Shown here piece by piece: positions 21,744 to 42,975 of a stretch of DNA of 64,000 nt. Each line of letters begins with the position of its first letter. The stretch's first letter is position 1. The notes below the pieces were generated by a model. The model was not told the origin of the DNA and did not search any database. It saw only the letters and a program-made list of their open reading frames with translations. Made by a program: the position numbers and the translations under genes. The stretch comes from a virus: positions 1 to 64,000 of IMG/VR virus record IMGVR_UViG_3300008267_000018; one strand, 5' to 3'.

Positions 21744-21771
21744 CGGTCAGTTTTACGTCATGACCAGGACG
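21744..21771 (-). promoter_or_regulatory. 5'-UTR pseudoknot, copy 1
   Basis: CGUC-CUGGUCAU-GACG-UAAAAC-UGACCG. Confidence 0.8.
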
Positions 21772-21776
21772 TTAGA

Positions 21777-22112
21777 TCACTCTGGTTTAGTCAGCAGTTC
21801 TTTGATAGCTTGGATTTCATCCATCAAGTCCTGGCGACTATATAACGTGAGTGAATCATAGGAACGCTCCACGATTTTTTCAGGGGCTTCAGTCTTCTGG
21901 ATAATGCGAGCCTCATCATTGACATCGTACGTAACAGTCTCGTACATTCTCCAGATCACATCATGGGGCCAACCATTGAGGTCTACGTTTTCCTCAAGTG
22001 ATGCACGAATGAGTGCATGCATTGTCTTGAAAAGAAACGTAGCCTTATCCTCAAAGATCTCAAGGTAACGATCTTCGTCAAGGCCGTAAGTGTCAATCGA
22101 CATAGCAGTCAA
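21777..22112 (-). CDS. Hypothetical protein
   Basis: 111-aa ORF in operon. Confidence 0.55.
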   Translation of the reverse strand: MTAMSIDTYGLDEDRYLEIFEDKATFLFKTMHALIRASLEENVDLNGWPHDVIWRMYETVTYDVNDEARIIQKTEAPEKIVERSYDSLTLYSRQDLMDEIQAIKELLTKPE

Positions 22113-22284
22113 GTGCGTTGGTTAATGCTTCAATGATAAAGGATTTTTGTCCTTTTTCACCAAGGTTTGTCCAGTATTCAAGATCTGGATCAGCATCATC
22201 CCACTCAATGCGGATGATGCAACCACCATCTTCTTCGTCAATCACAGTCACTTGCAACTTGTTTACCCAATTCGTGTTCAACAT
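22093..22284 (-). CDS. Hypothetical protein
   Basis: 63-aa ORF in operon. Confidence 0.45.
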   Translation of the reverse strand: MLNTNWVNKLQVTVIDEEDGGCIIRIEWDDADPDLEYWTNLGEKGQKSFIIEALTNALDCYVD

Positions 22285-22423
22285 GAGCTTTTAATACCTC
22301 TTCGACATAGTCTTCTTGGTGCATCCTAAGTTCTGCGCCAAGTTTTACAAGACCCCAGTGGGTATCTTGATCTAGTTCAAGATCGTAACGGATTGTTGTT
22401 TTGGTGTGTAAGTTGTGCTTCAT
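22238..22423 (-). CDS. Small protein, possibly ribbon-helix-helix
   Basis: IRYDLELDQDTHWGL..G...RM....YVEEVL pattern. Confidence 0.45.
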   Translation of the reverse strand: MKHNLHTKTTIRYDLELDQDTHWGLVKLGAELRMHQEDYVEEVLKAHVEHELGKQVASDCD

Positions 22424-23355
22424 TTCTTTTTGATTGCGGATTGCAGTTGTGACAATGCAGTACCAGGAAATGGTACATAGCCTGCCTCCATCATATTGAA
22501 AAACAAATCCCAGGCATGCCCTTGGTTGAATACCTCCGTTGGTTTGTACGTACGCCAGTGAGTCAATGGAGCCTGAGCACCAGACTTGGTATGCAGAAGT
22601 ACAAACTTACCATCACTGATGTGATCCTGAGGAGGTGCATACCACCATGCCACACACTTATCAGGTGTACCACTGGGCAATGCATTACGCACCTCAGTCC
22701 GCTTGCACAGCAGCTCACGGTATTTATGGAACCAAGTCAGGTGGATGCACCAGGGCTTGAATCCTTCGATCTCTTGTCGGAACAAATCCAAGTTGTTGAG
22801 CTGACGTTGAAAGGACCCGCATGAACAGAAAGGTTCAGGGACTTTGGACTCAGCTTGGTCCTCCACCAAGTCAGCGTCCATATCAATGGGCCGATTTGGA
22901 GCCCGCAACCCGTCCGGCGCAACCAAATGCCCCAGGTCCGTTTGGTCATTCTGGAGAAGAGCGATGACTTTATTGGGGTCAGATAAATGAATGAACTTGT
23001 CTGCCCAGTGTTGTTGGAGCTTGGCATTGGAAGTCAGGTGTCCGAGTGCGTGTGAGTAGTTCCAGCCCTTAAACATAACGTAAGCATTGTTATGCCATAC
23101 ACTAGGGCCACGGTAATTAGGACCAAGGTAAGAAAAGAAGTCTTTGAGTCGGTGAGTATACTGCTGGAACGCTGTCTTGATCAACGTCCGTTCATAAGCC
23201 TGCTCACTACCATCACAACGCACCACAACACAATTGTCATCTCGCAGATAAATGCCAGAGATTTCGGTGTCATCAAAGTCTGCATACGCACGACGAATGT
23301 TGGACCGTGAATAGATGAGGGCTTGAGCTGAGTTGAGTTCGGTTTGGAGTTGCAT
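22420..23355 (-). CDS. SWIM zinc-finger domain protein
   Basis: CSCGSF...WCIH (CxC-xn-CxH). Confidence 0.65.
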   Translation of the reverse strand: MQLQTELNSAQALIYSRSNIRRAYADFDDTEISGIYLRDDNCVVVRCDGSEQAYERTLIKTAFQQYTHRLKDFFSYLGPNYRGPSVWHNNAYVMFKGWNYSHALGHLTSNAKLQQHWADKFIHLSDPNKVIALLQNDQTDLGHLVAPDGLRAPNRPIDMDADLVEDQAESKVPEPFCSCGSFQRQLNNLDLFRQEIEGFKPWCIHLTWFHKYRELLCKRTEVRNALPSGTPDKCVAWWYAPPQDHISDGKFVLLHTKSGAQAPLTHWRTYKPTEVFNQGHAWDLFFNMMEAGYVPFPGTALSQLQSAIKKK

Positions 23356-23369
23356 GAGTCTGAGTTGAG

Positions 23370-23573
23370 TTAGATGAAGAGATCAGCGTCCTGGTCCCTG
23401 TCGTGAAGTGTATCACGATACTTGGTCCGCTTGTAGGCCAAGCGCGCCATCCGATACGTTCCGTAAAGAACGCCAGCCCAGCATACAGGACTACCAATGG
23501 CCAAGGCAACCACTCCTGCTATGGCAGCAGTTGCGGCACCATCTTTGATTGCAGCTTTTTCTTCAGGTTTCAT
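23370..23573 (-). CDS. Small membrane protein
   Basis: Hydrophobic Gly/Ala segment. Confidence 0.5.
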   Translation of the reverse strand: MKPEEKAAIKDGAATAAIAGVVALAIGSPVCWAGVLYGTYRMARLAYKRTKYRDTLHDRDQDADLFI

Positions 23574-23652
23574 TTGTGATTGTTAATACATTTTGAAGTT
23601 TTGATCTAGGGTTTACTATAGATGTAACCTATGGATGCCAACTGAATAAGCC

Positions 23653-23904
23653 ATGGAAGAAATCAAATACGTACCATTAACTAAATTTCAAATTGAACCA
23701 ACGCTTGATGATAAGTTTTGGCTAGAAAAAATCAAACGATCAATTGAAGATTGCAATTCAGTAAGTACCTTAAAAGAAATGGCGACCTTGCTTGCGCAGA
23801 TCGCCACTCAACGTCAAGGTGTGATTAGGGGATTAGTACAAGACATGTTTATTTTTAACGGCATTGCAATCAATCAAGATGACATTGCCAACCCTCCGAC
23901 TTAG
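23653..23904 (+). CDS. Hypothetical protein
   Basis: 83-aa ORF, the only plus-strand gene in this block. Confidence 0.55.
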   Translation: MEEIKYVPLTKFQIEPTLDDKFWLEKIKRSIEDCNSVSTLKEMATLLAQIATQRQGVIRGLVQDMFIFNGIAINQDDIANPPT

Positions 23905-24319
23905 CTTCTGCAATTAAACGAAAAACGGTTCTTTTGTTGTAACCAACATGTTTTGCAATCACATGGACAGCAGTACCTTCTTGTTTCATTTTTAAAATTG
24001 TTTTTCTTGTTTCAAAAGTACATTTTTTTGGATGGGTTCCATGGCGCTTTTTATTGTTCATATCATTTAAATTATCTAATTGTGTTCCAAGTTTTAAATG
24101 AAGTGGATTGCAACACAATCGTACATCGCATACATGCATAACAACTTTCCCTTTAGGAATAGGACCATAAAAATGCGAGTAAGTCCACCTATGGGCTAGT
24201 CTACTCACAGGGTTTGTAGGCATTTGGCCATAGCCTGCACCCATAGTAGAGCCAAGAAAAGGCCAGCATGAAGCTGGCCCGCCCTCAGAATCAATGAGAC
24301 TGAGAAAATAATAACTCAC
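23870..24319 (-). CDS. HNH homing endonuclease with C-terminal HTH
   Basis: CWPF..AHRWTY..VMHVCDVRLCCNPLHL..GT..DN. Confidence 0.85.
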   Translation of the reverse strand: MSYYFLSLIDSEGGPASCWPFLGSTMGAGYGQMPTNPVSRLAHRWTYSHFYGPIPKGKVVMHVCDVRLCCNPLHLKLGTQLDNLNDMNNKKRHGTHPKKCTFETRKTILKMKQEGTAVHVIAKHVGYNKRTVFRLIAEAKSEGWQCHLD

Positions 24320-25332
24320 AAGCTATTGTCCTCCCCAGTTAAAAGGTCACGAGAAGGTAATGCCTTGACTTCTACTTCATTCAATGTACGAGACACTGGA
24401 AGAACCTGCACGCCTTCTTTCATTCCATATGCTCCATTAAGTTTTTGAGCATCTTGTTTAGCATGGATGTTAATGTAATCACTGAACAGTTCCTGGAACT
24501 TCCAAGTAGATTCACGATCTTCATCAGGAATCGACATGCGATTCAAAGATTCGACCGCCTCTTCTTGGTTGCTGTAACCAGGAATGTCAAAAGATTCAAT
24601 TGCACAGATCTCAACGTTGTTGGCTCCGCGCATCTCATTGGCAAGTACTGGAGCAAATACGGTAGTTGCATAGAACTTTTCATTAAAGCTCAGCGGTACT
24701 TCAGCATCCAGTGCTTTGCTCAAGCACTTGGACATTTCCTTTTCGTACAGCTTGACCTTGTCGCTAACGTCAGTACCATTCAATCCCTTTAGTGTAAGCA
24801 CCATCGGAATCTTGTGGGCACGCTTGTTGTCCTGCGTAAGGATATACACCAGGTACTTTGTACGTACACTGTACTTACGCTTGTACATCTCACCTTTGCT
24901 GTTGGCAAGATCAGATGCAATCTTGTCAGCCTCAAACAATTCCTTGGTACTGGGATCATCAAACGTACCAATCGTCTGCCTCATCCCCGTGGTTTCCTCA
25001 ACCATGAGGGGAGAACGTAGAAGGATTTGAATACGAGGCTCAACAAAATTGAGTCCTTCTTCCACTGAAGTGTTGGGAGCCATGCCGAAAGTTTGCTTGT
25101 AGTTCCAGATAACTGAACCTTTAGCAAACTGATCTTCAGTGGCACTCCATCCGCAAGTGTCCAGATCTGAGTTCCGCACGAACCAACCTCTAGTCTTGGA
25201 CTTGTTGAGGGGCTGGATAGTAACGAGGTTCTGGTACCCCGAAACAAATTCTTTGGATTGAAAAAGTTTGAAAGAATCGAGGCCACGTGTAGCAAGCGCA
25301 GAAGTTTTCTTCGTAGTCATGGAAGCAGTCAT
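24316..25332 (-). CDS. Hypothetical protein, possibly ssDNA-binding or annealing (DUF5895-like by recall)
   Basis: 338 aa; PRIQILLRSPL..NKRAHKIPMVLTLKG; next to SSB. Confidence 0.5.
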   Translation of the reverse strand: MTASMTTKKTSALATRGLDSFKLFQSKEFVSGYQNLVTIQPLNKSKTRGWFVRNSDLDTCGWSATEDQFAKGSVIWNYKQTFGMAPNTSVEEGLNFVEPRIQILLRSPLMVEETTGMRQTIGTFDDPSTKELFEADKIASDLANSKGEMYKRKYSVRTKYLVYILTQDNKRAHKIPMVLTLKGLNGTDVSDKVKLYEKEMSKCLSKALDAEVPLSFNEKFYATTVFAPVLANEMRGANNVEICAIESFDIPGYSNQEEAVESLNRMSIPDEDRESTWKFQELFSDYINIHAKQDAQKLNGAYGMKEGVQVLPVSRTLNEVEVKALPSRDLLTGEDNSL

Positions 25333-25353: not shown

Positions 25354-25381
25354 TGGACGCTTTTAACGCCATCCCGAGGCG
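25354..25381 (-). promoter_or_regulatory. 5'-UTR pseudoknot, copy 2
   Basis: CGCC-UCGGGAU-GGCG-UUAAAA-GCGUCCA. Confidence 0.65.
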
Positions 25382-25842: not shown

Positions 25843-26658
25843 TCAGAAAGGAACTTCTTCGAGGTTGGGAGCAGAACCGTATTGACCAGGGAGTTCAGGT
25901 AGGCCACCTCCCGATGCTTGGTTCCAAGGATCAGTTGATTCTTCTAATGTGCGACCACCCCAAAGAGTAGACACATTCTCCGGCGTGCTTACCGTAGTCT
26001 GTGATTTGATTTCCCTTGGCTGATCATTCACATTTCCTTTGGGTGCAAGGGTCATGTTTACCAATTGAATCTTGGTTTGAACACGCTTTTCATTTGTGGT
26101 TTGATCGGTCCACGCATCAGTAACAAGCCGACCTTTAATGGTAAGACCCACGCCTTTACGCGTAAAGTTCACCAACAGTTCTGCGTTGTTCAACTTATCT
26201 TCATGCGAGTTGATCGCATAAAAGTTAAAGAGATCAGCTTGGTTACGACCAGTGCTAACCGACAACGTTTGGTTGCAGATCATCAAGCCAGTTGATGTGG
26301 TCTTGAATGCACGTGCATCTTCACGGTCAATGTCTTTAACACAGCGACCAGCAAGGATCACATCATTGATGATTGGAAACTCATCATTGACCTGGTGGAT
26401 AATTCCACCATGAAGTGAATGTGTTTTGGATTCAAGATCATAACGAATCTTGGCGCCATAAATAAACACCAAAGATTTTTCTTTCAGCCTGGAGAAACGC
26501 TCAGCAGTTTTGCCATAGACATTGAGTTGAATTGGAGTTGGTGCTTTGTTTCCTACGGGAGGAAGCAGTACCATGCAACGCATGGCAGTAGAGGATGCGC
26601 TGATGTAAACCTCGCGTGGAGTTTCATTCAGCTGAGCACAAACGCAGACGTGATTCAT
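25843..26658 (-). CDS. ssb: Single-stranded DNA-binding protein with tandem OB folds
   Basis: Two SSB-like repeats (INDVILAGR..KGVGLTIKGRLVTDAW); acidic EEVPF C-terminus. Confidence 0.8.
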   Translation of the reverse strand: MNHVCVCAQLNETPREVYISASSTAMRCMVLLPPVGNKAPTPIQLNVYGKTAERFSRLKEKSLVFIYGAKIRYDLESKTHSLHGGIIHQVNDEFPIINDVILAGRCVKDIDREDARAFKTTSTGLMICNQTLSVSTGRNQADLFNFYAINSHEDKLNNAELLVNFTRKGVGLTIKGRLVTDAWTDQTTNEKRVQTKIQLVNMTLAPKGNVNDQPREIKSQTTVSTPENVSTLWGGRTLEESTDPWNQASGGGLPELPGQYGSAPNLEEVPF

Positions 26659-26680: not shown

Positions 26681-26707
26681 AGGCAGTTTAACGTCATACC
26701 TGGGACG
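26681..26707 (-). promoter_or_regulatory. 5'-UTR pseudoknot, copy 3
   Basis: CGUC-CCAGGUAU-GACG-UUAAAC-UGCCU. Confidence 0.75.
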
Positions 26708-28815: not shown

Positions 28816-29583
28816 TTAAGATTCTTTTTTGAATGTCTTGCCATAGCCAACGAAGCCACCATCCTTCTTGCGTTGTGTAACAGCTTGCATAGCCTCAGAT
28901 CCAGCACGCTGGCTACCGTGCACCAAAAGTGCAAATGGTTTGTCACCAAGGCAATGGCTGTCGTCATGATCAATCTCAAGACCCAGCTCTGCCGCTTGCT
29001 CTTCCGTATATACAACGTAAGCAACCCGCTGGAACACATCGCTGTACTTGGGGATCAAGTAGTCGAGTGTCCCACCGGAAGATGCAGTGAGATAGAAGTT
29101 GGATGGGATTTGATCACGCAGGTTATACCACATACCAAGAGACTTGGTATAAGCATAGAACGTTTGCTTAGGTCGCTGGGCAGCAGCCATCAGCCAAGCA
29201 CGCATGTAGTTCTCAGTCCAGAAGTCACCAGACTCATGGACACGTACCAGTTTTTTTGGTGCTTGTAATGTGAGCGATAGGTCGATCAGGTCACGAAGCA
29301 ACATAGCCTGGTTCCCATTGGAGTGGATGACCTCACGAATGAGATCCCAGTTGTGCCATCGTGCCGCACGAACGTTGGGCCGCACCTCTGCCATGGCAGC
29401 AAAGCAACGGAACTCATCTGCTTCTGTGCCCGTGTACTGGGGCAGATCGGTAATGAGTCCGGTGACACGGTCAGCAAATGTCTTACAGACACCAGCGTGT
29501 GGGCATGAGTGACCAGCAGGCAGCGAGAAGATCAAACGATTCTTGAGCTTGCCGTTGCCGTTGGAGAATTTAAGGAGTTTCAT
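28816..29583 (-). CDS. GP88-family protein (radical-SAM-like)
   Basis: NGKL..FSLPAGHSCPHAGVC..CFA..VRVHESGDF..FYAYTKS. Confidence 0.75.
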   Translation of the reverse strand: MKLLKFSNGNGKLKNRLIFSLPAGHSCPHAGVCKTFADRVTGLITDLPQYTGTEADEFRCFAAMAEVRPNVRAARWHNWDLIREVIHSNGNQAMLLRDLIDLSLTLQAPKKLVRVHESGDFWTENYMRAWLMAAAQRPKQTFYAYTKSLGMWYNLRDQIPSNFYLTASSGGTLDYLIPKYSDVFQRVAYVVYTEEQAAELGLEIDHDDSHCLGDKPFALLVHGSQRAGSEAMQAVTQRKKDGGFVGYGKTFKKES

Positions 29584-29615: not shown

Positions 29616-29643
29616 TGAATGAGTTTAGGGACATCTCAGGTCC
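29616..29643 (-). promoter_or_regulatory. 5'-UTR pseudoknot, copy 4
   Basis: GGAC-CUGAGAU-GUCC-CUAAAC-UCAUUCA. Confidence 0.7.
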
Positions 29644-34432: not shown

Positions 34433-34455
34433 TGTGTTTGAGTTGAGTAGATAGG

Positions 34456-34531
34456 TGGTACCCGAGGTGAGATTCGAACTCACGCTTGAGGACTTTTAAG
34501 GTCCTTGCCTCTTCCGCTGGGCTACTCGGGC
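34456..34531 (-). tRNA. tRNA-Leu(UAA), short variable loop, encoded CCA
   Basis: GCCCGAG/CTCGGGT acceptor; AGGAC-CTTAAAA-GTCCT anticodon arm; GTGAG-TTCGAAT-CTCAC T arm; A-CCA. Confidence 0.9.
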
Positions 34532-34788
34532 TCACTTGGACTTACATCAATAGATGTTGAATGCCAAGTGTGATCTTGTGGCAATACTTCCATACCGTAC
34601 TGCCAGCTGTCATAGTCATCCTCATTACGAGGATCTTGTTCATCAATCAATACATAGTCAGGTGTGCCATGAGTATGTATGTACTCACCAAGGTTGGCAA
34701 GTGCCATTGCTAGCAGCTGTTGTTCTTCAAGAGTAATGTCACGGTGTTCAAACTCTTGATCAGTGTGCTTGCTAAACGGTTCAGTCAT
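34522..34788 (-). CDS. Acidic hypothetical protein; its stop lies inside the tRNA 5' end
   Basis: 88-aa ORF. Confidence 0.5.
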   Translation of the reverse strand: MTEPFSKHTDQEFEHRDITLEEQQLLAMALANLGEYIHTHGTPDYVLIDEQDPRNEDDYDSWQYGMEVLPQDHTWHSTSIDVSPSEPE

Positions 34789-34839
34789 GGATGAATGCCA
34801 GCCCTAGTATCGAGGCTAAGGCTGGCAAGCCTGTGCGGG

Positions 34840-36585
34840 CTACGCAGACTTTAGCTCATCATTGCGGGAATGCAACGCCTTGCCAAAGGCTTTTGTGTAT
34901 GCATCCTTCTGCTCGTCTGTCAACCGTTGGTTTGACATGCCAACGATCTGACTGACGGTCATCATGCCCATGTCAACTTTAAGTTGAACAGTGAACTGAG
35001 GTTTGCCATCCACCATACAGAGCACAATAAAATGCTTCTTCTTGCGTACACCATCAGCATAGTCTTTGGCATTGCCGACGCAATTGCGTACGGCTTGGCC
35101 CCATGCTGACAGTTGGTGTGTGTCATGAGGCTGGAAAAATGACCAACGCTCATCATTCACTTGTACCTTGACAGGTACAGGGAATAGATCTTGAGGTAAG
35201 CCAACGTTGGGATGCTTGATCTTCCATGCTTCTGCTTGCACATGGTCATGGAACTCAGTGAGACGCCAACGCTTTGGTGCTGTAATAACAATGTTGTTAC
35301 ACAGTACATCATCTAGCATAGACAGAGTATCATTCCAGTCACTGAAGTAGAACGTAACAACGCCTGTCTCAACAGGTGTGTAGTAGCTAAAACGATGCTG
35401 TTCACTTGCTGAAGTAAACTGCAAAGCATAGTGCTGCTTAAGCATGTTAAAGAAACTAGCTGGTTGCATATTGGTACGCAACCAAGTAACAGTTCTTTCA
35501 GGAAGGTAGCGATCAAGTCGCACACCCAATAGTTCTGTCACATGTGTTTGATAGTAATCAATAGGGCAGTCCGGCCAGATTCTGTTGATATAGTCAATAG
35601 ATTGAACCAGTTTCTCGATACGCTTCCAAGGCTGTGTTAGCTTACAAAACAGATTATTGTCTGGATCATTGAACATTGCAATAGCTTCATCACATTGTGA
35701 TTGAATCCATTTACGGAAGAATGGTTTACCAACAATGTGAATGATGCGACTAATAACACTGAAGTGTTGGCCATGAACTGAGTTGTTGCTTGGATATGTA
35801 TCAGCCAATGTATAAACAAGATCAGCAGATGGCACTAGATCAAGCATTGTTTGAACAGGATTATCAAACTGTTGCCAATACTTTGTGTAGCCTTTCAACT
35901 GAAGAATGTTGGTCCAGTTGTTAGTAGTGATACGATCAAAGAATCCACGTGAGTCATGCCATTTAGGAATGGTTGCAGATAACGTAGCTTCGAATGCATT
36001 AATGGTTTCTCTAATCCATTGGCCTTTGCCATATGAAATATAAAAACCGTTCCACCACTTTGTTGTTTGTCCGTTAACAATATCTTCCTTGGTTACGTTC
36101 TGACGTACGACACAGAATTCACTGCGTCCGTACTTAACGTATTCAACGGTACGCTTACTGTTGTTATCAATAAGAGTATGAGGGATGGATTTAAGTACAG
36201 AATCTAGATTCTTGTATGCATATGCATAGCCATACACATAGTCATCTTCTTGTCCTTTAGGTGGCAGCCATGCTGCATACCACACCTTCTCGTAGTGATA
36301 GATGATGGTATGCGTAATGGTGCGTGCCGTAGGTGTAGCAACATCTACCACCTTGGTAAACCGATGATGACGTTGCTCTACGCCTCTGGAGTTGATGCTA
36401 GTTACTGCATCTTCTAAAGCTTCTGGTCTAATGACATCAGCAGGGATCAGATCAAACACAGCACCAAGTGGAAACTTGGGCTTAGCCTTGACAGCTTTAG
36501 GATTCTGCTCCCGTGCCAGTTGCTTAAGCTTGGGATCGTAGGCCAGTAGTTCTGTTTGGAGATTGGAAGGAAGACGGAATTCCAT
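34840..36585 (-). CDS. PcfJ-domain protein
   Basis: C-terminal HD..L..WGQAVRNCVG..Y..QI.GMSN; start MEFRLP. Confidence 0.75.
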   Translation of the reverse strand: MEFRLPSNLQTELLAYDPKLKQLAREQNPKAVKAKPKFPLGAVFDLIPADVIRPEALEDAVTSINSRGVEQRHHRFTKVVDVATPTARTITHTIIYHYEKVWYAAWLPPKGQEDDYVYGYAYAYKNLDSVLKSIPHTLIDNNSKRTVEYVKYGRSEFCVVRQNVTKEDIVNGQTTKWWNGFYISYGKGQWIRETINAFEATLSATIPKWHDSRGFFDRITTNNWTNILQLKGYTKYWQQFDNPVQTMLDLVPSADLVYTLADTYPSNNSVHGQHFSVISRIIHIVGKPFFRKWIQSQCDEAIAMFNDPDNNLFCKLTQPWKRIEKLVQSIDYINRIWPDCPIDYYQTHVTELLGVRLDRYLPERTVTWLRTNMQPASFFNMLKQHYALQFTSASEQHRFSYYTPVETGVVTFYFSDWNDTLSMLDDVLCNNIVITAPKRWRLTEFHDHVQAEAWKIKHPNVGLPQDLFPVPVKVQVNDERWSFFQPHDTHQLSAWGQAVRNCVGNAKDYADGVRKKKHFIVLCMVDGKPQFTVQLKVDMGMMTVSQIVGMSNQRLTDEQKDAYTKAFGKALHSRNDELKSA

Positions 36586-36612
36586 GGTGAGTTCGTAGTA
36601 AGTTCGTAGTAG

Positions 36613-36640
36613 TGGACAGTTTAACGTCATGTCCAGGACG
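36613..36640 (-). promoter_or_regulatory. 5'-UTR pseudoknot, copy 5
   Basis: CGUC-CUGGACAU-GACG-UUAAAC-UGUCCA (perfect 6-bp P2). Confidence 0.85.
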
Positions 36641-36645
36641 TAGGG

Positions 36646-36894
36646 TTAGTCGTTATCTATTGGAAGGAGTTCCCAGTCAGGGTCGAGCTTAGCAAGATAA
36701 TCGCAGAAGCCATCTTCGTCAAGAGGGATTTGTTCTCCCTCATCCAGTTCAAAGCTAGTTCTGCATAGTGCAGGAGCGTACTCCTCAGGGTCAAGGTAAG
36801 TTGACCGATAGATGAGACGCATCTCGTCCACAATTGCTGTAACTGTGACTTCATATCCATTGATGGTTGTGTCTTCAATAGCAAGGACTTGCAT
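36646..36894 (-). CDS. Acidic hypothetical protein
   Basis: 82 aa; DPEEYAPALC. Confidence 0.6.
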   Translation of the reverse strand: MQVLAIEDTTINGYEVTVTAIVDEMRLIYRSTYLDPEEYAPALCRTSFELDEGEQIPLDEDGFCDYLAKLDPDWELLPIDND

Positions 36895-36897
36895 GAG

Positions 36898-37095
36898 TTA
36901 CACCTGTGTGAGTTGTTTGGCCTGGGCAAACTGACCTTCAGGCCCATACTTCTGGACAAGGTCAGGGAATGCATCAAGCAAACGCTGCCGATTCTTTGGA
37001 TCAGCAAAGCGTAGTGCTTGTGCAATTGAGGATACAAATGATCCGCCATAGCTGTCCATGCGGGCAATCATGGCGTGTAGCTCAGTGCTGTTCAT
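36898..37095 (-). CDS. Hypothetical protein
   Basis: YGGSFVSSIAQA..ADPKN..L..AFPD. Confidence 0.65.
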   Translation of the reverse strand: MNSTELHAMIARMDSYGGSFVSSIAQALRFADPKNRQRLLDAFPDLVQKYGPEGQFAQAKQLTQV

Positions 37096-37115
37096 GAGTT
37101 TAGGTTGAGTTGGAA

Positions 37116-37143
37116 TGGATGAGTTTAAGGACATCCCAGGTCC
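37116..37143 (-). promoter_or_regulatory. 5'-UTR pseudoknot, copy 6
   Basis: GGAC-CUGGGAU-GUCC-UUAAAC-UCAUCCA. Confidence 0.7.
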
Positions 37144-37148
37144 TTGGA

Positions 37149-37346
37149 TCAGAACAACTTGATGTTGCGTTTACTCAAGCCTGTGCCAGGCAATGAGATA
37201 GATCCACGTACACCAGATTCTCTGGCGTTAAGTGTTACCTGGAATGGTCCAAGTTGAATCGACTTAGTAAACGATTTGATTCCATGTTCAGTGACATTGA
37301 ATCCAGCAATTGTCTTGTCAAAGTTAATGGGTGACTTGTCAGTCAT
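37149..37346 (-). CDS. DUF4236-like small protein
   Basis: KSIQLGPFQVTL..SISLPGTGLS. Confidence 0.55.
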   Translation of the reverse strand: MTDKSPINFDKTIAGFNVTEHGIKSFTKSIQLGPFQVTLNARESGVRGSISLPGTGLSKRNIKLF

Positions 37347-37683
37347 CGAGTTGCTCCAGTGCTTTACGAATGATGTCGTAAGTGACATCATCAATCTTGT
37401 CTCTGTTGTATACATCGCCAAGTTCAATTAACGCTTGCTCCTTTAAGCTTGGCGGCCTGGGGCGGCGGGCGGCGCGGAGTGATGGGATGAGAGCGCAGTG
37501 AGTTACTAGGTTTTGGCAGCGCAGCCACTCACAACACGCCTCTAGCTCCTGATCGGCGCCCCAGCGGGCGGCTTGGGTGGCGATGAAATCTACAAGTCCA
37601 TCATGTTTGACCTTGGCATCAATCCAAGAATCGTGCCACTGCTCCACCAGTTCCGGCGGTGGGGTAATTGGATGGTCAGTCAT
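37339..37683 (-). CDS. Dispersed paralog of the ITPPPEL/WGADQ family
   Basis: MTDHPITPPPELVEQW..AARWGADQELEAC..PPSLKEQAL. Confidence 0.7.
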   Translation of the reverse strand: MTDHPITPPPELVEQWHDSWIDAKVKHDGLVDFIATQAARWGADQELEACCEWLRCQNLVTHCALIPSLRAARRPRPPSLKEQALIELGDVYNRDKIDDVTYDIIRKALEQLDD

Positions 37684-37975
37684 CGTAGGAATCCTCGTGA
37701 CAAAGAATGAATTTTAATTCGAAATACTCCGAATCGCTATTGTCTTTGGAATGGTACTTGGCTTCGAATCCACCAGATCCAACACATGTTTCCTTGATGG
37801 ATTCATTTAATAAATGACGTGCCCTTGCTTTAAGTCTTTGCAATGTTGGCAATGAGTATCCATTGCCTGCCGTTGTTTGCCATTGCCAGTCAAGTGCTGT
37901 CATGGCAATCAATACTTTTTCAAAGTTGAATTTGTCAATGATCTCATCGATCATTTCCTTCTGATCAGGAGTCAT
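37676..37975 (-). CDS. Hypothetical protein
   Basis: FNFEKV..M.ALDWQW..GSGGF. Confidence 0.6.
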   Translation of the reverse strand: MTPDQKEMIDEIIDKFNFEKVLIAMTALDWQWQTTAGNGYSLPTLQRLKARARHLLNESIKETCVGSGGFEAKYHSKDNSDSEYFELKFILCHEDSYDD

Positions 37976-38175
37976 TTGAGGTTGTCAGGTAGTAGTGCTT
38001 GGGTGTCTTCATCATCCATGTTTGTCATGATGAACTTTTGTCCATCGGGGGCAACAAAGCCCCCGATAAAACCAATGCCATGTTTATCTGCTGATTCTTT
38101 CATCTTGGCTACAAGCTGCATAGCTTGGAGTCGTTGAAGATCAATAGAGTCTGGGATGCGCAGGCTGTCAGACAT
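37972..38175 (-). CDS. Hypothetical protein
   Basis: 67 aa; ATGA coupling. Confidence 0.6.
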   Translation of the reverse strand: MSDSLRIPDSIDLQRLQAMQLVAKMKESADKHGIGFIGGFVAPDGQKFIMTNMDDEDTQALLPDNLK

Positions 38176-38280
38176 TTGATTAGTACGTGAGGTGAGTTGA
38201 GTGTGGTCACGGCAAGTCTACCAGGGTAGTCAAGCCATGACCAATGGTCTTAATGTTTCCTTAACCTTGCGGTAGGGCTG

Positions 38281-38751
38281 TTAGCTATGAAGTTCTTGGT
38301 GCTGACGCCATGCAGCTGTGTGCATTTCATCAGCAGTCAGTGGTGACTCACTGCCATAGCCAAGCTCTTCATCTGATGGTTCATAGTCAAGTTCATTGTC
38401 AAGCATGGGGATAATCTCATCATCCAGCATGGCAAGCATGGAGGGTGTGAGATGTTGATCCATTTCGTGACGTTTGCTCTCACGTTGAGAGATAGCTTTC
38501 AGTTCTTCGAGAATGTTGGCAAGCTTGTGGTACTCGTTAAGGTTGGTCTTGTGAGTAGTCATGGGTTGATTATTGGAAGATTGAGTAGTGATCTGGAACT
38601 TAATCAGTTCAGTTAGTCCAACAAGCCTGGTGATTACCAGGTCTTTGTTGTCATGAACTGTTGCATCATCTTTGAGTACTTCAGTTAATGCAAACAATGC
38701 ATCATGGATGAAAGTGATGTCTACTTCTGTGAAGGAGTACTGTTTAGTCAT
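38281..38751 (-). CDS. Hypothetical protein (possible second in-frame start MTTHK)
   Basis: CAACCC-ATG precedes both Met codons. Confidence 0.5.
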   Translation of the reverse strand: MTKQYSFTEVDITFIHDALFALTEVLKDDATVHDNKDLVITRLVGLTELIKFQITTQSSNNQPMTTHKTNLNEYHKLANILEELKAISQRESKRHEMDQHLTPSMLAMLDDEIIPMLDNELDYEPSDEELGYGSESPLTADEMHTAAWRQHQELHS

Positions 38752-38840
38752 GGGTTGGTAAGTGAATGAATGGTGTGTAGTACAGAGGCATCTCTTATAG
38801 ATTAAGGTGCACCTCTGGTACTTCTGTCGGGGGGTCTGGG

Positions 38841-39142
38841 GGGTAGGCCAGTAGTTATCTGGCAATACCCTTGATGAGTTTAAAAACAGTTGTGAGGCGT
38901 ACCTAGTTCTTTGATCAATCGCTCAAAGGAACAATTGACTCTTGTGCCGTTAACGACTGCATAGATGTTATCGCTGCCATAAGTTGTACGCAGTTCAGTT
39001 ATCTTATCTTCTGGTATAGCTAGAAGATGAGGTCTGCCATCTGAAGTAACTTGAGTGGTTTTGAAAACAAAAATTCTTTGTGGCATTGTGTTAATTACGT
39101 TGAGCTTAAATGGGTAGGCCAGTAGTTATCTGGCAATACCCT
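38841..39142. repeat. 31-bp direct repeats (38841-38871, 39112-39142) flanking ORF 38880-39086
   Basis: gggtaggccagtagttatctggcaataccct twice, identical. Confidence 0.9.
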
Positions 39143-39227
39143 GGTACTTACTGTTCGCTATTCGCAAATAGCGAATGTCAGCATAACGTTAGTGTTATGT
39201 GCCGTAGGTTAGATCAAGCCGAGAATC

Positions 39228-39770
39228 CTAAGCCAGGAGTTTACAACTGATTTCAGGCAATACATTTAATACTGAAAAATCTTTGTAAACATCTTTAACA
39301 AAGCAATTGTATTCATAGGCTAAACGAGCAGGGCATATGTGATGAGCAAGATGTTTAGACTTACCGTTTAGAGTAACGGTAGACCTAAATAAACCTCTTG
39401 TCTTGTGCCATGAAACCCCCTTGTAACCCGTAGTGTTACTAGATCTAAGTTTCATGTTTGCTGCGTTTTGAGATCTACTTGATAAACGTAGATTTTCAAT
39501 ACAGTTATTAGAACTATCTTGATCTATATGATCAACTTCATATTGACCAGGATCTGTACCTGTGGCCAGATAATAAACAATCCTGGCGCACTTATAGTTC
39601 TTTCCATTGATTTGAATTATAGATCGCTTGGATTTAAAATCATAGGCACCTGCCTGTTCACCAGGTTTGCATCGATTATTAAAGCTGTATTTAACAGCAA
39701 GACCAGTAGGAAAACTGGGGCAAAGTTCATAACGCTTTGCCACCAAATCGTAGTCAGGCATGTTGTGCAT
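39228..39770 (-). CDS. HNH-AP2 homing endonuclease
   Basis: VDHIDQDSSNNCIENLR..QN..N..SNTTGYKGV; AT-rich. Confidence 0.85.
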   Translation of the reverse strand: MHNMPDYDLVAKRYELCPSFPTGLAVKYSFNNRCKPGEQAGAYDFKSKRSIIQINGKNYKCARIVYYLATGTDPGQYEVDHIDQDSSNNCIENLRLSSRSQNAANMKLRSSNTTGYKGVSWHKTRGLFRSTVTLNGKSKHLAHHICPARLAYEYNCFVKDVYKDFSVLNVLPEISCKLLA

Positions 39771-39772
39771 AA

Positions 39773-40132
39773 TTAAATCAATCCAAGAATTGATAACCAA
39801 GAATCTACGTGGTCTGGTTCGACTTCGTCACTGCAGGGAGTGAGGCAGGTGCTGTCGAACGTGTACTCCTCGATCTCTTCGTTGGTTGGGATGTCGTACC
39901 ATCCTTCGAGATCTTCCTTGTCCTGGGCTGAGTAGTTACCACCGGCTGGGATCCAGTAGCACCTGAGGATTCCACGCTTGGTTCTGTAGACATTACCAGT
40001 GCAGGCGATGGCGCCTTTGGGTGCGTCCTGAAAGTCTGTCTCTGCTTGGAACTGCTGGTTACCTTCGTCTTCGTCGAAGGCTTCGTAGCCGAGTGCGTCT
40101 GCGATGAGCAGTTGTTCAGGTTGAAGAGACAT
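39773..40132 (-). CDS. Acidic hypothetical protein (target of the HNH insertion)
   Basis: 119 aa ending VEPDHVDSWLSILGLI. Confidence 0.65.
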   Translation of the reverse strand: MSLQPEQLLIADALGYEAFDEDEGNQQFQAETDFQDAPKGAIACTGNVYRTKRGILRCYWIPAGGNYSAQDKEDLEGWYDIPTNEEIEEYTFDSTCLTPCSDEVEPDHVDSWLSILGLI

Positions 40133-40286
40133 GAGATGAGATCTCCGATGAGTGTGATTGAGATTGAGATGAGTGTGATCAGGACAATGGCGATGTCGTC
40201 AACAATGTCGACCTGCTGTTGATTAGCAGTTGATGTCGGCACAGTTGACGAGTTGTCCTTAGTACGTTGAGTTGATTTGGTCATGG

Positions 40287-40430
40287 TTAATCACCGTGGT
40301 AAGTGGATGGGTAGTCAGTGGTATCCCAATCAGATTGATTGGATTCACGCATGGCTTGCTCCTGCTCATAGGCAATGTCTGCCATAGCATCAAGCAAGTC
40401 TGCGTTGTAGTTCTGATCAAGTTGAGTCAT
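40287..40430 (-). CDS. 47-aa acidic peptide
   Basis: MTQLDQNYNADLLDAMADIAYEQEQ..; preceded by a pseudoknot leader. Confidence 0.5.
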   Translation of the reverse strand: MTQLDQNYNADLLDAMADIAYEQEQAMRESNQSDWDTTDYPSTYHGD

Positions 40431-40452
40431 GGTCTGAGTTGAGATGGAACGG

Positions 40453-40480
40453 TGAGCAGTTTAAGGACATGCTCAGGTCC
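40453..40480 (-). promoter_or_regulatory. 5'-UTR pseudoknot, copy 7
   Basis: GGAC-CUGAGCAU-GUCC-UUAAAC-UGCUCA (perfect 6-bp P2). Confidence 0.85.
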
Positions 40481-40498
40481 ATACGTAGTACTGATGTA

Positions 40499-40873
40499 CT
40501 ACCTCATGAGTCTGTTCTTGAAGTTGGGGATATATACATTGTCTTGGCACGGTTCCTTATAGGACCTGTACGTGACAATTGCATAGATGGCCGCTGGTGT
40601 CATGTCGTATGCCCTGGCAATAAACCCAATTGATTCATTGTATTTAGCACGGGCACGAATGTCATTGACCTGGGCATCACTAAGGAAGCCACGGTAGCGT
40701 CCACGTTTGATTGGGTCTTCCTTGAGGGGAGGACGTTGCCTCACTCTACGGATGACCTTAGTCATTGATATGGGACTGCAGTTGACAATGCTAGCGATCA
40801 GATCGTAGCGATAACCTTTGCAACGCAGATCCCAAATCTGGTCTTCTTTCAGGATAGAAATGCGTGATTTCAT
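40499..40873 (-). CDS. Tandem HTH DNA-binding protein
   Basis: Two repeats L.EDQI.DLR..IA and LSDAQVNDIR..IARAY. Confidence 0.65.
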   Translation of the reverse strand: MKSRISILKEDQIWDLRCKGYRYDLIASIVNCSPISMTKVIRRVRQRPPLKEDPIKRGRYRGFLSDAQVNDIRARAKYNESIGFIARAYDMTPAAIYAIVTYRSYKEPCQDNVYIPNFKNRLMR

Positions 40874-40895
40874 TGGATTTGAGTTGAGTTGTTGG

Positions 40896-40923
40896 TGAGT
40901 AGTTTAAGGACATGCTCAGGTCC
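40896..40923 (-). promoter_or_regulatory. 5'-UTR pseudoknot, copy 8
   Basis: GGAC-CUGAGCAU-GUCC-UUAAAC-UACUCA. Confidence 0.8.
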
Positions 40924-41034
40924 ATCTAATACTTGGAATCTTAATAACCGTTGTTTATCAAAGATCTTAATAACTAAACAGCCATTACTTTGGTGCTGGC
41001 TGTTCGGGTGGGGGTCTGGGGGTAAACCTAGTGC

Positions 41035-41376
41035 TTATCTTATGTATAGGTATGAACCTGCATAATCACAGTTGTGTAGGCAGGTTTCAAATGATTGATC
41101 ATCCAGTAGTTGGTACCGTGCATGTTCCGCTGGTGCTTTCCATGATGCAGGCTTATAGATAGTCCCTGTCTGTCTTGCGACAAATGCATGGACTGATCTG
41201 CCTTCATACCTGGTACCAGGACTAGAGACATGGATGATCTTGTAGTACTTAACCCCTCGCTTAACTTCGAAAGCTACGGGGCTACTGTGCTGTTTGTAGA
41301 ACTTATCTTGGAGAGTCTCGCAGAGTTGTTGGATGCGATCCTCGATAAGCTTGGTGTTAGCGCTTAGTGTTGTCAT
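41035..41376 (-). CDS. Conserved phage hypothetical protein
   Basis: G.KYYKI..SVHAFV..TG.IYKPASWKAPA..ARY. Confidence 0.7.
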   Translation of the reverse strand: MTTLSANTKLIEDRIQQLCETLQDKFYKQHSSPVAFEVKRGVKYYKIIHVSSPGTRYEGRSVHAFVARQTGTIYKPASWKAPAEHARYQLLDDQSFETCLHNCDYAGSYLYIR

Positions 41377-41554
41377 GTTGTTGAGTAGGAGTTGGGTTGG
41401 TGATATCAATGCCGACTACAGCAGTTGCTGTGAAGCCAGCAATGATAAGTGATAGGGCTGCCACACAGATCTTACTAAGGCGAGTCTCATGAGACGCATA
41501 GTAAGAATCAAGGTGGACAAATTGCCCTGGTGCTAGACGAACGATGTGCTTCAT
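41357..41554 (-). CDS. Small membrane protein
   Basis: Single hydrophobic helix. Confidence 0.5.
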   Translation of the reverse strand: MKHIVRLAPGQFVHLDSYYASHETRLSKICVAALSLIIAGFTATAVVGIDITNPTPTQQHDNTKR

Positions 41555-41560
41555 TGGTTT

Positions 41561-41821
41561 TCAGTTGACTGCAAGGATGTACTTAACGCATACGTAGCTT
41601 GGCACTACGTAGTAGCTAGGAATCTCGTTGAGATAGTACCATTCACCCTTGTAGTCAAGAGATATGCAAGAGTTTTCGGTAACAAGCTGTAGTGCTTTGG
41701 CGCCTGTGGTGCACCAAACCATGTATACATTCTTGTCAAACAGCAGATAGTAATCATGCTCTTTGATGTCAAACTCTTTGAGTGCAGATTGAATTTGAAT
41801 GTGGTCAAGTGTGATTGGCAT
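41561..41821 (-). CDS. Hypothetical protein
   Basis: 86 aa; structured leader upstream. Confidence 0.5.
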   Translation of the reverse strand: MPITLDHIQIQSALKEFDIKEHDYYLLFDKNVYMVWCTTGAKALQLVTENSCISLDYKGEWYYLNEIPSYYVVPSYVCVKYILAVN

Positions 41822-41845
41822 AGAGATTCAACTGGGTTGAGTGTG

Positions 41846-41891
41846 TGCAGACGCTGAGGTCTGCAGTAAAGGCCCGAAGGCCCTTAGTGCA
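41846..41891 (-). promoter_or_regulatory. UNCG two-hairpin leader element, copy A
   Basis: UGCA-CU-AAGGGCC-UUCG-GGCCUUU-AC-UGCA plus a GCAGAC/GUCUGC hairpin. Confidence 0.6.
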
Positions 41892-41895
41892 AACG

Positions 41896-42093
41896 TCAAA
41901 GGTAACGCTTATCCAGGCAATAGTATGCATCGCCTATAAAGCTACGCATGTATACCAGTTGATGCCCTGCTTTCGCTGGGCAATGTTTGACGTAATAATT
42001 GTTGAGTAACTTCTGTGCTCCTACGGATAAGAGCATACCTGCTCCTACGCCCATAACCATGGCCAGCACAGGTGTTGCGAGTGAGTCTTTCAT
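41896..42093 (-). CDS. Small membrane protein
   Basis: N-terminal hydrophobic helix. Confidence 0.5.
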   Translation of the reverse strand: MKDSLATPVLAMVMGVGAGMLLSVGAQKLLNNYYVKHCPAKAGHQLVYMRSFIGDAYYCLDKRYL

Positions 42094-42132
42094 GTCAGTT
42101 GAGCTGAGGTTGATTGAGTGTGTTGAGAAGGA

Positions 42133-42405
42133 TCACATGCGTTGAAGCTTGCGCTCTAGTTCCATGTCAATGGAGTAATGATAGTAGTCTTCCATCTCCA
42201 TGAGCATCTCCTTCATACTTGTTGGTACGCCACCGCCAAGTGTACGTACGTCACGGTCTAGCCACTCTTGCCATTCGGCATCGGTGTCTGGGTCAAATGT
42301 ATTCCACAGCTTCTCAAAGTGAAGCTGGGTTGATTCGCCGCCATACCATGTGACGCGGTACTGTTGTTCGGCGGATGGTTTGTAGACCAGCTCAGGTGTT
42401 GTCAT
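42133..42405 (-). CDS. Hypothetical protein
   Basis: 90 aa. Confidence 0.55.
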   Translation of the reverse strand: MTTPELVYKPSAEQQYRVTWYGGESTQLHFEKLWNTFDPDTDAEWQEWLDRDVRTLGGGVPTSMKEMLMEMEDYYHYSIDMELERKLQRM

Positions 42406-42430
42406 TGTTGAGTTGAAGTAGCGTTGATGA

Positions 42431-42475
42431 CAGGATGTTGAGTCCTGCAGTAAAGGCCCGTAGACCCTTAGTGCA
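42431..42475 (-). promoter_or_regulatory. UNCG two-hairpin leader element, copy B
   Basis: UGCA-CU-AAGGGUC-UACG-GGCCUUU-AC-UGCA plus a CAGGA/UCCUG hairpin. Confidence 0.6.
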
Positions 42476-42728
42476 GAAGTCAGAGTTCAGGTTTAGGAGT
42501 AATGACGAATGCCACATCGTTAGGCATCAGTAGTGCTGCTGCCCTGATGCGGTATTCATTCAGCTTGGTGCTGACATACTCCTTAGATTTGTCACTCTCC
42601 AGCATTGCTGCTGTCGAGATGAGTGCATTGGCTAGTCCTTTGCGGATACCCATGTTGTGTTGTGTAGATGCCACTGAGTGTGGCAATTCCTGACCAGGGG
42701 ATTTGATCCCCCGGCATCACGCTTGTGA

Positions 42729-42920
42729 TCAGGCAAGCCAATTCTGGTAGATCCAGATACGGCACTCATCGTAATCAAGGTTGACGTTGGGGTCTTTGCA
42801 CATGGCAGAAGCCTGAGCCTCTACCCATGTGCAAACGTGGCAATCAACCATGACAGGCAGCTCGATGCCACATACTGTTGCAACGTAATCGCCCTGTTGA
42901 TTAAGTGAGATACAGTTCAT
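42729..42920 (-). CDS. Cys-rich hypothetical protein
   Basis: 63 aa; pseudoknot leader upstream. Confidence 0.5.
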   Translation of the reverse strand: MNCISLNQQGDYVATVCGIELPVMVDCHVCTWVEAQASAMCKDPNVNLDYDECRIWIYQNWLA

Positions 42921-42950
42921 GATGTTGAGGTGAGTTGATGTGGGTTTGAT

Positions 42951-42975
42951 GCTACGTTTAACGTCCAGCTTGACG
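42951..42975 (-). promoter_or_regulatory. 5'-UTR pseudoknot, copy 9 (divergent)
   Basis: CGUC-AAGCUG-GACG-UUAAAC-GUAGC. Confidence 0.55.

Follow-up and report, generated by a model that had tools for sequence, protein, structure and literature searches.

A small RNA pseudoknot repeated between early genes of a virus related to Synechococcus phage S-EIV1, widespread among phages and sharing a core with coremin

Results

Nine copies of a pseudoknot in the leftward arm

The DNA analysed here, referred to as the window, is a stretch of 64,000 nucleotides at the start of a virus record that has 84.6 kb on a single contig (IMGVR_UViG_3300008267_000018), and is about 72% identical to Synechococcus phage S-EIV1 (KJ410740). 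Its early and replication genes form a leftward arm, whose sense strand is the minus strand. On this strand lies an H-type pseudoknot of 25-28 nt, found at all nine sites where an initial annotation of the window had placed such a motif; the coordinates given there correspond to the 3' ends of the copies. In this study we conclude from comparative analysis that the element very probably represents a real family of cis-acting RNA pseudoknots, with a solid structure and a wide distribution among phages. Its core is common to coremin, an element of eukaryotic RNA viruses that stalls the exoribonuclease Xrn1, and we lean, with some reserve, towards a function as a roadblock to 5'-3' decay.

The element comprises a 4-bp stem (P1), a single C (L1), a loop segment, one base that is mostly U (L2), the 3' strand of the stem (P1'), an A-rich spacer (L3) and a tail (P2') that is complementary to the loop segment and forms with it the second helix, P2 (Table 1). 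P1 occurs in the window as CGUC/GACG, GGAC/GUCC or CGCC/GGCG, L3 is usually UUAAAC, with UAAAAC or CUAAAC in certain copies, and P2 extends over 4-6 bp; inspection of the nine sites thus bears out the P1 variants and the complementarity of loop and tail that had been pointed out. All nine copies are intergenic. The end of L3 is located 26-39 nt, and the end of P2' about 20-33 nt, before the next ATG, which agrees with the 20-33 nt reported previously. [quoted passage not shown]

Copies 2 and 9, whose P1 starts at 25381 and 42975, are divergent, and their assignment is based on inspection. For copy 2 it is also based on relatives, which carry similar knots with a 7-nt loop at the corresponding place downstream of ssb. 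Copy 9 is the most upstream in the leftward arm, and a -10-like GATAAT ends 35 nt upstream of it.

Table 1 Copies of the pseudoknot in the window. The higher coordinate of each copy is the 5' base of P1; R1 and R2 are the covariance models described in the text.
Copy	Position	Strand	Structural features	Distance from upstream stop	Downstream gene	Model score
1	21744..21771	-	P1 CGUC/GACG; P2 6 bp	5 nt	37-aa ORF (ATG 21724)	R2 49.1 bits, E 1.2e-9
2 (divergent)	25354..25381	-	P1 CGCC/GGCG; 7-nt loop; L3 UUAAAA; P2 4 bp with G.U	5 nt	DUF5895 gene (ATG 25332)	missed by R1 and R2
3	26681..26707	-			ssb (25843-26658)	R2 46 bits, E 6.9e-9
4	29616..29643	-	P1 GGAC/GUCC; 7-nt loop; weak, bulged P2		GP88-family gene (28816-29583)	R2 20.4 bits, E 0.011
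5	36613..36640	-		5 nt	581-aa PcfJ-domain gene (34840-36585)	R2 48.9 bits, E 1.4e-9
6	37116..37143	-	7-nt loop	5 nt	65-aa ORF (36898-37095)	R2 25.3 bits, E 7e-4
7	40453..40480	-			47-aa ORF (40287-40430)	R2 40.7 bits, E 1.4e-7
8	40896..40923	-			124-aa ORF (40499-40873)	R2 38.1 bits, E 5.6e-7
9 (divergent)	42951..42975	-	6-nt loop without the C of L1; P2 4 bp with G.U		63-aa ORF (42729-42920)	R1 E 1.3; R2 fragment, E 6.3

Comparative support for the fold

A covariance model (R1) was built from eleven copies with an 8-nt loop, five from the window and six from S-EIV1, with P1 as the sole structure, and was searched against the window, S-EIV1 and 20 IMG/VR loci fetched via the PolA protein. Every one of the 76 matches at E<=1e-4 lies on the PolA strand, and they reduce to 68 distinct rows. 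In these rows 95.0% of the cells pair, as compared with 81.7% in column shuffles (none of 500 as high) and 19-41% when the partners are slid. Moreover, five of the six P2 pairs vary on both sides, although P2 was absent from R1.

IMG/VR was also scanned with a pattern in which only the bases of P1 and L3 were fixed and P2 was left free, which returned at least 115 further stretches. R1 was searched against 80 of them (L025-L104) and gave 126 matches, or 117 distinct rows, in which 95.1% of 1158 cells pair; this level is reached by none of 500 shuffles, and slid controls range from 23 to 42%. Double-sided change affects all four P1 pairs and five of the six P2 pairs. Covariation of P2 in homologues, which had been set beforehand as a test of the proposed structure, is thus present in both sets. 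A compensatory change is also seen at the orthologous site before ssb, where P2 reads AGGUA/UGCCU in the window and AAGCA/UGCUU in S-EIV1.

A second model (R2), derived from IMG/VR sequences only and with P2 as the structure, was run unfiltered on both strands of the whole genome (85,612 bases searched). It recovers seven of the nine window copies, with E values from 1.2e-9 to 0.011, and no further copy on either strand. A candidate tenth copy at 48534-48561 (+) shows a perfect 6-bp match of loop and tail; it lies inside a 311-aa ORF, is detected by no model and was dismissed as a chance occurrence. With a loose scanner the genome contains 27 sites, against 2-12 in 20 shuffles.

Folding restricted to nested structures yielded ordinary energies, with z-scores from -2.37 to +0.34 and one site of nine below -2; single-sequence folding is uninformative here, as the program is unable to model knots. 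The nested energies being unremarkable, the support for the fold is comparative and not thermodynamic. The loop lengths permit the two helices to coexist, a 1-nt L1 spanning the 6-bp P2 and a 6-nt L3 spanning the 4-bp P1, and the knots of phage T2 gene 32 and of beet western yellows virus (BWYV) show that such lengths suffice. L1 is one base, a C in all 176 distinct copies, and the L2 junction is 0-1 nt long (U in 138, C in 22 and A in 15 of the 176). Judged from these sequences, single-base L1 and L2 would fit two helices stacked in one knot better than alternative hairpins.

Sense-strand RNA rather than a DNA element

Among the 1056 cells of P2 in the 176 distinct copies, G.U occurs 96 times and A.C 17 times. 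As G.U is far above A.C, it is the sense strand that folds; a structure of the opposite strand or a double-stranded recognition site would not yield this asymmetry. Together with the compensatory changes in both helices, these counts sustain the earlier view of an RNA structure rather than a DNA operator.

An element acting at the DNA level, either a phage promoter with TAAACT as its -10 box or a single-stranded DNA structure, is for the same reasons a most improbable explanation. The number of copies, their gene-matched orientation and their intergenic place do resemble those of phage promoters, and TAAACT fits TAnnnT. Nevertheless, the two helices are interleaved and covary, no more than two copies come closer to an upstream stop codon than a sharp lower bound near 5 nt, and the core is common to an element of RNA viruses. 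Furthermore, UUAAAAG variants lose the T of the would-be -10-like TAAACT while the pairing is kept by a shift, and the arm has no excess of sigma-70-like sites (22 versus 30.3 expected). A peak of TAnnnT located 7 nt before P1 was considered as a -10 box and discarded, as it equals the conserved last codons (CTA GAC TAA) of an upstream gene at orthologous sites. In some loci of relatives, a recurrent stretch that resembles a hairpin, whose loop contains TTGACAG and after which comes GATAGACTAA, is found 25-35 nt upstream of several knots, and could be an early promoter or another structured element.

Spacing between neighbouring genes

Spacing was examined in 186 distinct copies parsed from 234 model matches. 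The next ATG follows the end of L3 at a median distance of 28 nt, and at 25-29 nt in 102 of 174 copies. On the other side, P1 starts 4-5 nt after the upstream stop codon in 67 of 178 copies and closer in two, and most of the 4-nt gaps listed are in fact 5 nt, the parsing having placed P1 one base too early. The gap is exactly 5 nt at four non-orthologous copies of the nine in the window, and the same value is found in unrelated lineages, namely in two of the three copies of locus L092 and in L153; the third copy of L092 (P1 AUGU, gap 4 nt) may owe its value to the same shift of one base. The bases of the spacer between stop codon and P1 are not conserved. In the arm of S-EIV1, a tally from the coordinates of coding sequences (CDS) and the positions of the copies places a knot in five of the six intercistronic gaps of 54-60 nt. 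The stop codon, 5 nt, the knot, about 21 nt and the AUG constitute a unit of stereotyped spacing.

A readthrough or frameshift signal was considered and rejected, since the frame from stop codon to ATG is not constant: the offsets, obtained by adding the 8 nt between stop and P1 to the distance of the motif from the ATG, are 55, 57, 63 and 56 nt at the four 5-nt sites of the window. A gap of 4 nt would bring the UAA of L3 in frame.

None of the nine spacers of the window contains a Shine-Dalgarno (SD) core (GGAG, GAGG or AGGA), as had been annotated. In S-EIV1, an SD core is present at -20 to -4 in 20 of 128 annotated CDS, which is about the estimated expectation from composition, and early genes that lack a knot have similar C/A-rich leaders. 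With SD rare throughout the phage and knot-less leaders alike, SD-less initiation belongs to the phage and not to the motif, so that the observation itself stands but is not specific to the knot.

Distribution beyond this phage

The knot occurs in contigs that have no protein in common with this phage (tblastn, 1e-5), with four copies each in L062 and L097, three in L092 and two in L038; these contigs add further P1 variants, which still pair. A stricter pattern, again with P2 left free, was applied to species-representative bacterial genomes and returned 28 stretches with 32 sites, for about 4 expected by chance according to our estimate. At least five of the six P2 pairs are formed in 30 of the 32 sites. 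Most of them belong to Bacillota (Enterococcus, Ruminococcus, Finegoldia, Peptostreptococcaceae and others), and the others include metagenome-assembled genomes (MAGs) of Saccharibacteria, Anaerolineales and Bradymonadales, and a phytoplasma. Knots in prophages are thus distributed over Bacillota, Patescibacteria, Chloroflexota and mollicutes. The lone gammaproteobacterial site, with one P2 pair of six, looks like a chance match, and two Selenomonadaceae sites located in long open frames may be coding.

Phage scaffold genes follow several of the bacterial copies, and a gut-phage locus (L027) has PF06810 downstream. In these unrelated phages and prophages the knot is often followed by a normal SD, at variable distance. 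The element can also be repeated: two knots stand back to back in L146 (1370-1440, +), a knot is followed by one or two modules made of a hairpin plus UUAAA in L162 (about 7300-7480, -), and in L140 (175-238, +) a knot and a second hairpin together resemble the Rfam family GP20-b. An arrangement like that of the cyanophage, with at least four copies between small ORFs, is present on one contig of a Bacilli MAG (L156/L158) and on one of a Bacteroidota MAG (L150). A BLAST search of the Enterococcus locus against the phage collection returned two weak coding matches only.

This distribution, with a normal SD in many cases, is at odds with the phage-wide regulon, private to this phage, that had been envisaged. 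Given that the host phyla differ, that proteins are not shared and that the bases are nearly identical, the partner of the knot is probably a host-universal machine, or else the fold works without one.

Proteins of about 335 aa adjoin the knots in several genomes, namely the DUF5895 protein of the window (24316-25332, -) and DUF932 proteins in L062 (6917-7930), L092 (5094-6098) and L038 (2522-3520). A cognate phage protein of the DUF5895 or DUF932 type was not favoured as the partner, as the multi-copy contigs L150, L156 and L158 hold no ORF of about 330 aa, judged by ORF size without a Pfam run.

Relatives in databases and the coremin core

Rfam 15 contains no family that matches the motif, either with the whole window at gathering scores or with positions 21000-43500 and a 561-nt stretch containing two copies at E<=10. 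The literature that we searched describes no such phage element, which is possibly listed in the supplements of PMC5737381 (224 motifs) or PMC10690425 (10,006 candidates). The knots would therefore form a large uncatalogued family of phage leader and intercistronic elements. The initial failure to assign a named family holds for Rfam 15, but the literature does contain a named relative, coremin (also xrRNA-C, for exoribonuclease-resistant RNA), as well as GP20-b, a weak architectural one.

Coremin has been described as a hairpin with G2-U3 opposite A10-C11, a C-G closing pair and a YGAD loop, followed by G12 and then the spacer U13U14A15A16A17C18U19A20C21, whose A16-A20 cannot be dispensed with, and by a second hairpin, which is also required (Dilweg et al. 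2019, PMC6546385). It stalls Xrn1, and the authors suspect an H-type knot similar to that of BWYV, formed between the loop and the end of the spacer (PMC6546385). The consensus given for the loop is YGAD (4 nt) or YGNNAD (6 nt), with a 5' hairpin of 3-5 bp closed by a pyrimidine-purine pair and a second hairpin (hp2) of at least 4 bp, and the hosts of the element are beny-, cucumo- and other eukaryotic RNA viruses, from plants as well as fungi (PMC6546385, PMC10520033, PMC10321173). According to the main texts of the later reports, loops can reach eight bases, two 7-nt loops are Xrn1-resistant, with no consensus given for this length, a selected variant has Watson-Crick pairs between loop and spacer, and the element is an obstacle to scanning ribosomes and a stimulator of -1 frameshifting (Dilweg et al. 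2023, PMC10520033, PMC10321173). By a term search, these main texts mention neither phages nor bacteria.

In the phage family the pair that closes the loop agrees with that of coremin, C9 and G18 each being present in 174 of 176 copies. The first base of the loop is C in 176, the penultimate base A in 175, and the last base U in 138, C in 22 and A in 15. In the spacer, AAA is found in 176, the following C in 172 and U in 173 copies, and the base equivalent to A20 is G in 149 and A in 22, as compared with UUAAACUAC in coremin, a conservation that is partly imposed by the search pattern and the models. Beyond the spacer, the bases of the window copies pair back to the loop, and the next 11 positions (34-44) are poor in G, with 5-15 G among 176 copies.

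A coremin pattern taken from the published description retrieved 49 IMG/VR stretches with 51 sites. Forty-eight of the 51, all in short contigs, read GUC-CGAA-GAC-GUUAAACU-AC, with a hairpin next in the rows read by eye; the other three, two of them in contigs longer than 100 kb, look like chance matches. R1 was run on 43 of the 49 loci, a comparison that is circular as the loci had been picked by the pattern of the shared core. As a control, a genuine coremin site (L178) matches no Rfam family, and Rfam is thus silent on coremin.

Other features of the window

A tRNA-Leu gene with anticodon UAA is located within the early arm at 34456-34531 (-), according to Rfam (58 bits) and ARAGORN. At 15522-15594 (+), a place where tRNA-like elements had been noted earlier, ARAGORN also reports an odd, tRNA-like gene whose "anticodon" has two bases. 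The first gene of the rightward arm, at 44124-47105 (+), encodes a protein of 993 aa without Pfam or PHROG match.

Discussion

A possible roadblock to 5'-3' decay

Among the four mechanisms offered in the initial annotation, a block to decay by RNase J gains most from our analysis, by analogy, through a P1 and a spacer core equal to those of Xrn1-stalling coremin. We adopt as a working model, which we regard as quite possible, that the knot is a folded roadblock shielding the downstream cistron from 5'-3' decay by RNase J. Cleavage upstream, or conversion of the 5' end, would let in a 5'-3' exoribonuclease, which in cyanobacteria and Bacillota would be RNase J. The enzyme would stall at the knot in the manner of coremin, the A-rich L3 being able to lie in the minor groove of P1, and the downstream cistron would survive and be translated from its G-poor leader of about 21 nt, just long enough for a 30S subunit. 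Placed 5 nt past a stop codon, the knot would stay folded within a polycistronic message.

The stereotyped spacing can be read in terms of ribosome geometry, a reading that builds on work on the mRNA channel of the ribosome and on the spacing of frameshift sites. Five nucleotides would be the minimum that lets a ribosome keep the stop codon in its A site without having to unwind P1, and about 20 nt the minimum for a leader with room for a 30S subunit. The arrangement of stop codon, 5 nt, knot, about 21 nt and AUG may then be the most compact layout that keeps a knot folded between two ribosomes.

The roadblock is favoured by the coremin core, by this implied need to stay folded and by the tandem copies, and also by the use of the knot before highly expressed genes such as those for SSB and scaffold proteins. 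Knots located both inside operons and near a likely transcript start, as in L151, where by our reading a TGGTATAAT stretch ends 10 nt before P1, point in the same direction. Furthermore, RNase J (TIGR00649) is found above cut-off in four of the five non-Bacillota genomes that bear a knot, which we count in favour; among control genomes, those of Synechococcus elongatus and of Bacillus subtilis are listed with it, that of Escherichia coli is not.

Several points weigh against a roadblock. The enzyme RNase J is unrelated to Xrn1. In one Bacteroidota MAG that bears a knot it was not found above cut-off, and no RNA runs containing window positions 34001-44000 were listed. The near-constant distance of about 21 nt to the ATG would suit translation initiation equally well. 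Many copies are orthologous, so that fewer independent events underlie the data than the counts of cells and spacings suggest, and nested folding amounts to -3 to -7.6 kcal/mol, each helix alone being weak. The resemblance to coremin is also incomplete in respects that matter for its activity: the second base of the phage loop is U (157) or C (19) rather than G, outside both YGAD and YGNNAD, the base after AAACU is mostly G (149 of 176) instead of A20, and the phage copies are devoid of the hp2 needed for Xrn1 resistance. Finally, ordinary frameshifter knots of the BWYV type are reported not to stall Xrn1 (PMC10520033, PMC10321173), so that resistance to an exonuclease does not follow from such a fold as a matter of course.

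If the knot does stop RNase J, it would represent a general and so far undescribed means, available to phages that infect cyanobacteria and Gram-positive bacteria, of adjusting how stable each cistron in a long message is. The xrRNA concept, developed for eukaryotic RNA viruses, would then also cover DNA phages, and the knot would provide a portable 28-nt stabiliser or insulator for synthetic biology in these hosts. The phage family, with its hundreds of natural variants in which the hypothesised contact between loop and spacer is a plain Watson-Crick helix, would also aid in solving coremin's three-dimensional structure. Even under another mechanism, it is a widespread and highly conserved structured RNA missing from Rfam 15.

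Alternative functions

The main rival to a roadblock, although in our view an unlikely one, is a translation-initiation module, in which the knot would dock on or beside the platform of the 30S subunit, or would free the G-poor leader of upstream pairing, and thereby raise internal initiation. It would account for the narrow range of distances between L3 and the ATG and for the strongly G-poor positions 34-44; the final module in bacteria is frequently adjacent to the ribosome-binding site (the end of P2' lies 12-26 nt before the ATG in L144, L145, L152 and L164), and a phage that uses no SD needs another mode of initiation. However, most SD-less genes of S-EIV1 have comparable C/A-rich leaders and no knot, so that the knot is dispensable for this mode, and in Bacillota the distance from knot to start varies from about 12 to more than 100 nt in the presence of a normal SD. 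The tight spacing may instead be a lower bound resulting from genome compaction, and coremin inhibits scanning ribosomes rather than recruiting them (PMC10520033, PMC10321173). The enhancer recruiting ribosomal protein S1 that had been suggested is, in its S1-only version, disfavoured by the distribution of the knot. Inhibition of ribosomes could itself be the function, the knot acting as a barrier or insulator that resists the ribosomal helicase, halts terminated or read-through ribosomes and uncouples neighbouring genes. The sharp 5-nt spacing past stop codons would suit such a barrier, as would the blocking of scanning ribosomes and the -1 frameshifting reported for coremin (PMC10520033, PMC10321173). 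We nonetheless consider it improbable, as the gap to the end of the upstream ORF is at least 30 nt in 61 of 186 copies, bacterial copies often lie past terminator-like T runs instead of stop codons, and no slippery heptamer is seen by eye before the stop codons of the four 5-nt sites in the window.

The knot could also be an operator for an RNA-binding protein, either the phage SSB, for which the autoregulation of T4 gene 32 offers a precedent, or a conserved host protein acting as repressor or activator of the genes behind the knot. One copy indeed precedes ssb, a knot followed by an unstructured leader recalls the leader of gene 32, and the loop bases are highly conserved; but a phage-specific partner is difficult to reconcile with phages that have no detectable protein in common and infect other host phyla, and P2, the largest surface, varies freely. 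We therefore find little to recommend an operator, and the site for a phage RNA-binding protein proposed at the outset loses ground for the same reason. Still less probable is a processing function, whereby polycistronic messages would be divided into units, either at a site for RNase P, E, Y or III or by a minimal RNA that cleaves itself. A distribution over several phyla, a pseudoknot and many near-invariant bases, all found here, are described as the mark of "sophisticated" RNAs (Weinberg et al. 2017, PMC5737381), and the same hairpin with its A-rich spacer forms the 5' part of a RAGATH-1 ribozyme in L164. The phage copies, on the other hand, have neither a catalytic-core sequence nor extra helices past the knot, and the window copies match no ribozyme family even at E<=10. 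As for ligand sensing, small pseudoknot riboswitches such as preQ1-I and SAM-II have this topology as well, a hairpin with an A-rich tail whose end pairs with the loop, and the SAM-II model matches a neighbouring Enterococcus hairpin weakly (13 bits, E 1.4). A sensor of this kind, also among the initial proposals, is nevertheless extremely improbable: no riboswitch model (preQ1-I, SAM-II/V or similar) matches the window copies, L1 and L2 are single bases and the variability of L2 argues against a ligand pocket, and nine copies before unrelated genes, with scaffold genes elsewhere, follow no metabolic logic.

Comparison with known systems

GP20-b (RF03003) is a candidate cis-regulatory RNA found upstream of phage GP20/scaffold genes (PMC10690425); a term search does not find it in the main text of Weinberg et al. 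2017 (PMC5737381). Like the knots described here, it occurs in phage 5' leaders before scaffold genes and combines hairpins, two in number, with a subsequent A-rich stretch, the end of which is able to pair with a loop. The knot and second hairpin of the Enterococcus prophage score 19.2 bits (E 0.068) against GP20-b, below its gathering score of 36.2, and the window copies do not match it even at E<=10. Conversely, a true member (L171, 37.5 bits) is made of similar modules but is missed by R2 at E<=5, and the window element differs in being a single module, present in nine copies before ssb, GP88, PcfJ, DUF5895 and small-ORF genes. GP20-b thus appears as a weak architectural relative.

The luteoviral -1 frameshift knots of the BWYV type and the leader knot of T2/T4 gene 32 are also compact H-type pseudoknots, with an L1 of 1-2 bases and an A-rich loop in the stem 1 minor groove. 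In gene 32, which encodes an SSB, the knot moreover occupies the 5' end of a leader without structure; it serves one autoregulated gene, whereas the window has nine copies before diverse genes. Unlike the BWYV knot, the phage knot shows no slippery site before it at the four window sites inspected and lies after a stop codon instead of within an ORF.

A further relative is found in L164, where a RAGATH-1 hammerhead (RF03152, 68.4 bits) at 4534-4620 (+) lies 600 nt downstream of a knot (3913-3940). Its 5' part is a GUC/GAC hairpin with an A-rich spacer of the same form, and, in the alignment read by eye, the loop of this hairpin can pair with the strand that replaces stem II. RAGATH-1 has a full hammerhead core, which the window copies lack, and its model does not match them. 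The coremin-like module would hence appear to be built into a ribozyme as well.

The closest likeness is with coremin. The P1 stem is the same, with G-U-C opposite G-A-C, a C-G closing pair and an outer pair to G; the loop opens with a pyrimidine and closes with A-D; and the spacer agrees over G-UUAAACU, giving the shared core GUC...GAC-G-UUAAACU, in which the essential A's, C and U are 98-100% conserved in the phage family, a figure to which the search pattern and the models contribute. Both elements are found in intergenic regions and in tandem. On the other hand, the phage loop has 7-8 nt (6 in copy 9) instead of 4-6, the phage element contains a canonical, covarying knot helix of up to 6 bp, and its hosts are bacteria with RNase J and not Xrn1. 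Taken together, the phage knot looks like the core fold of coremin with the tertiary contact turned into a helix, which places it outside the published definition. By this analogy it is conceivable, though we say so more guardedly than for the roadblock itself, that the knot is the first xrRNA of prokaryotic viruses, an element of 28 nt built on the coremin core that phages whose hosts have RNase J would put before key cistrons as a shield against 5'-3' decay, and that this fold is shared across kingdoms by DNA phages and eukaryotic RNA viruses, whether ancient or convergent.

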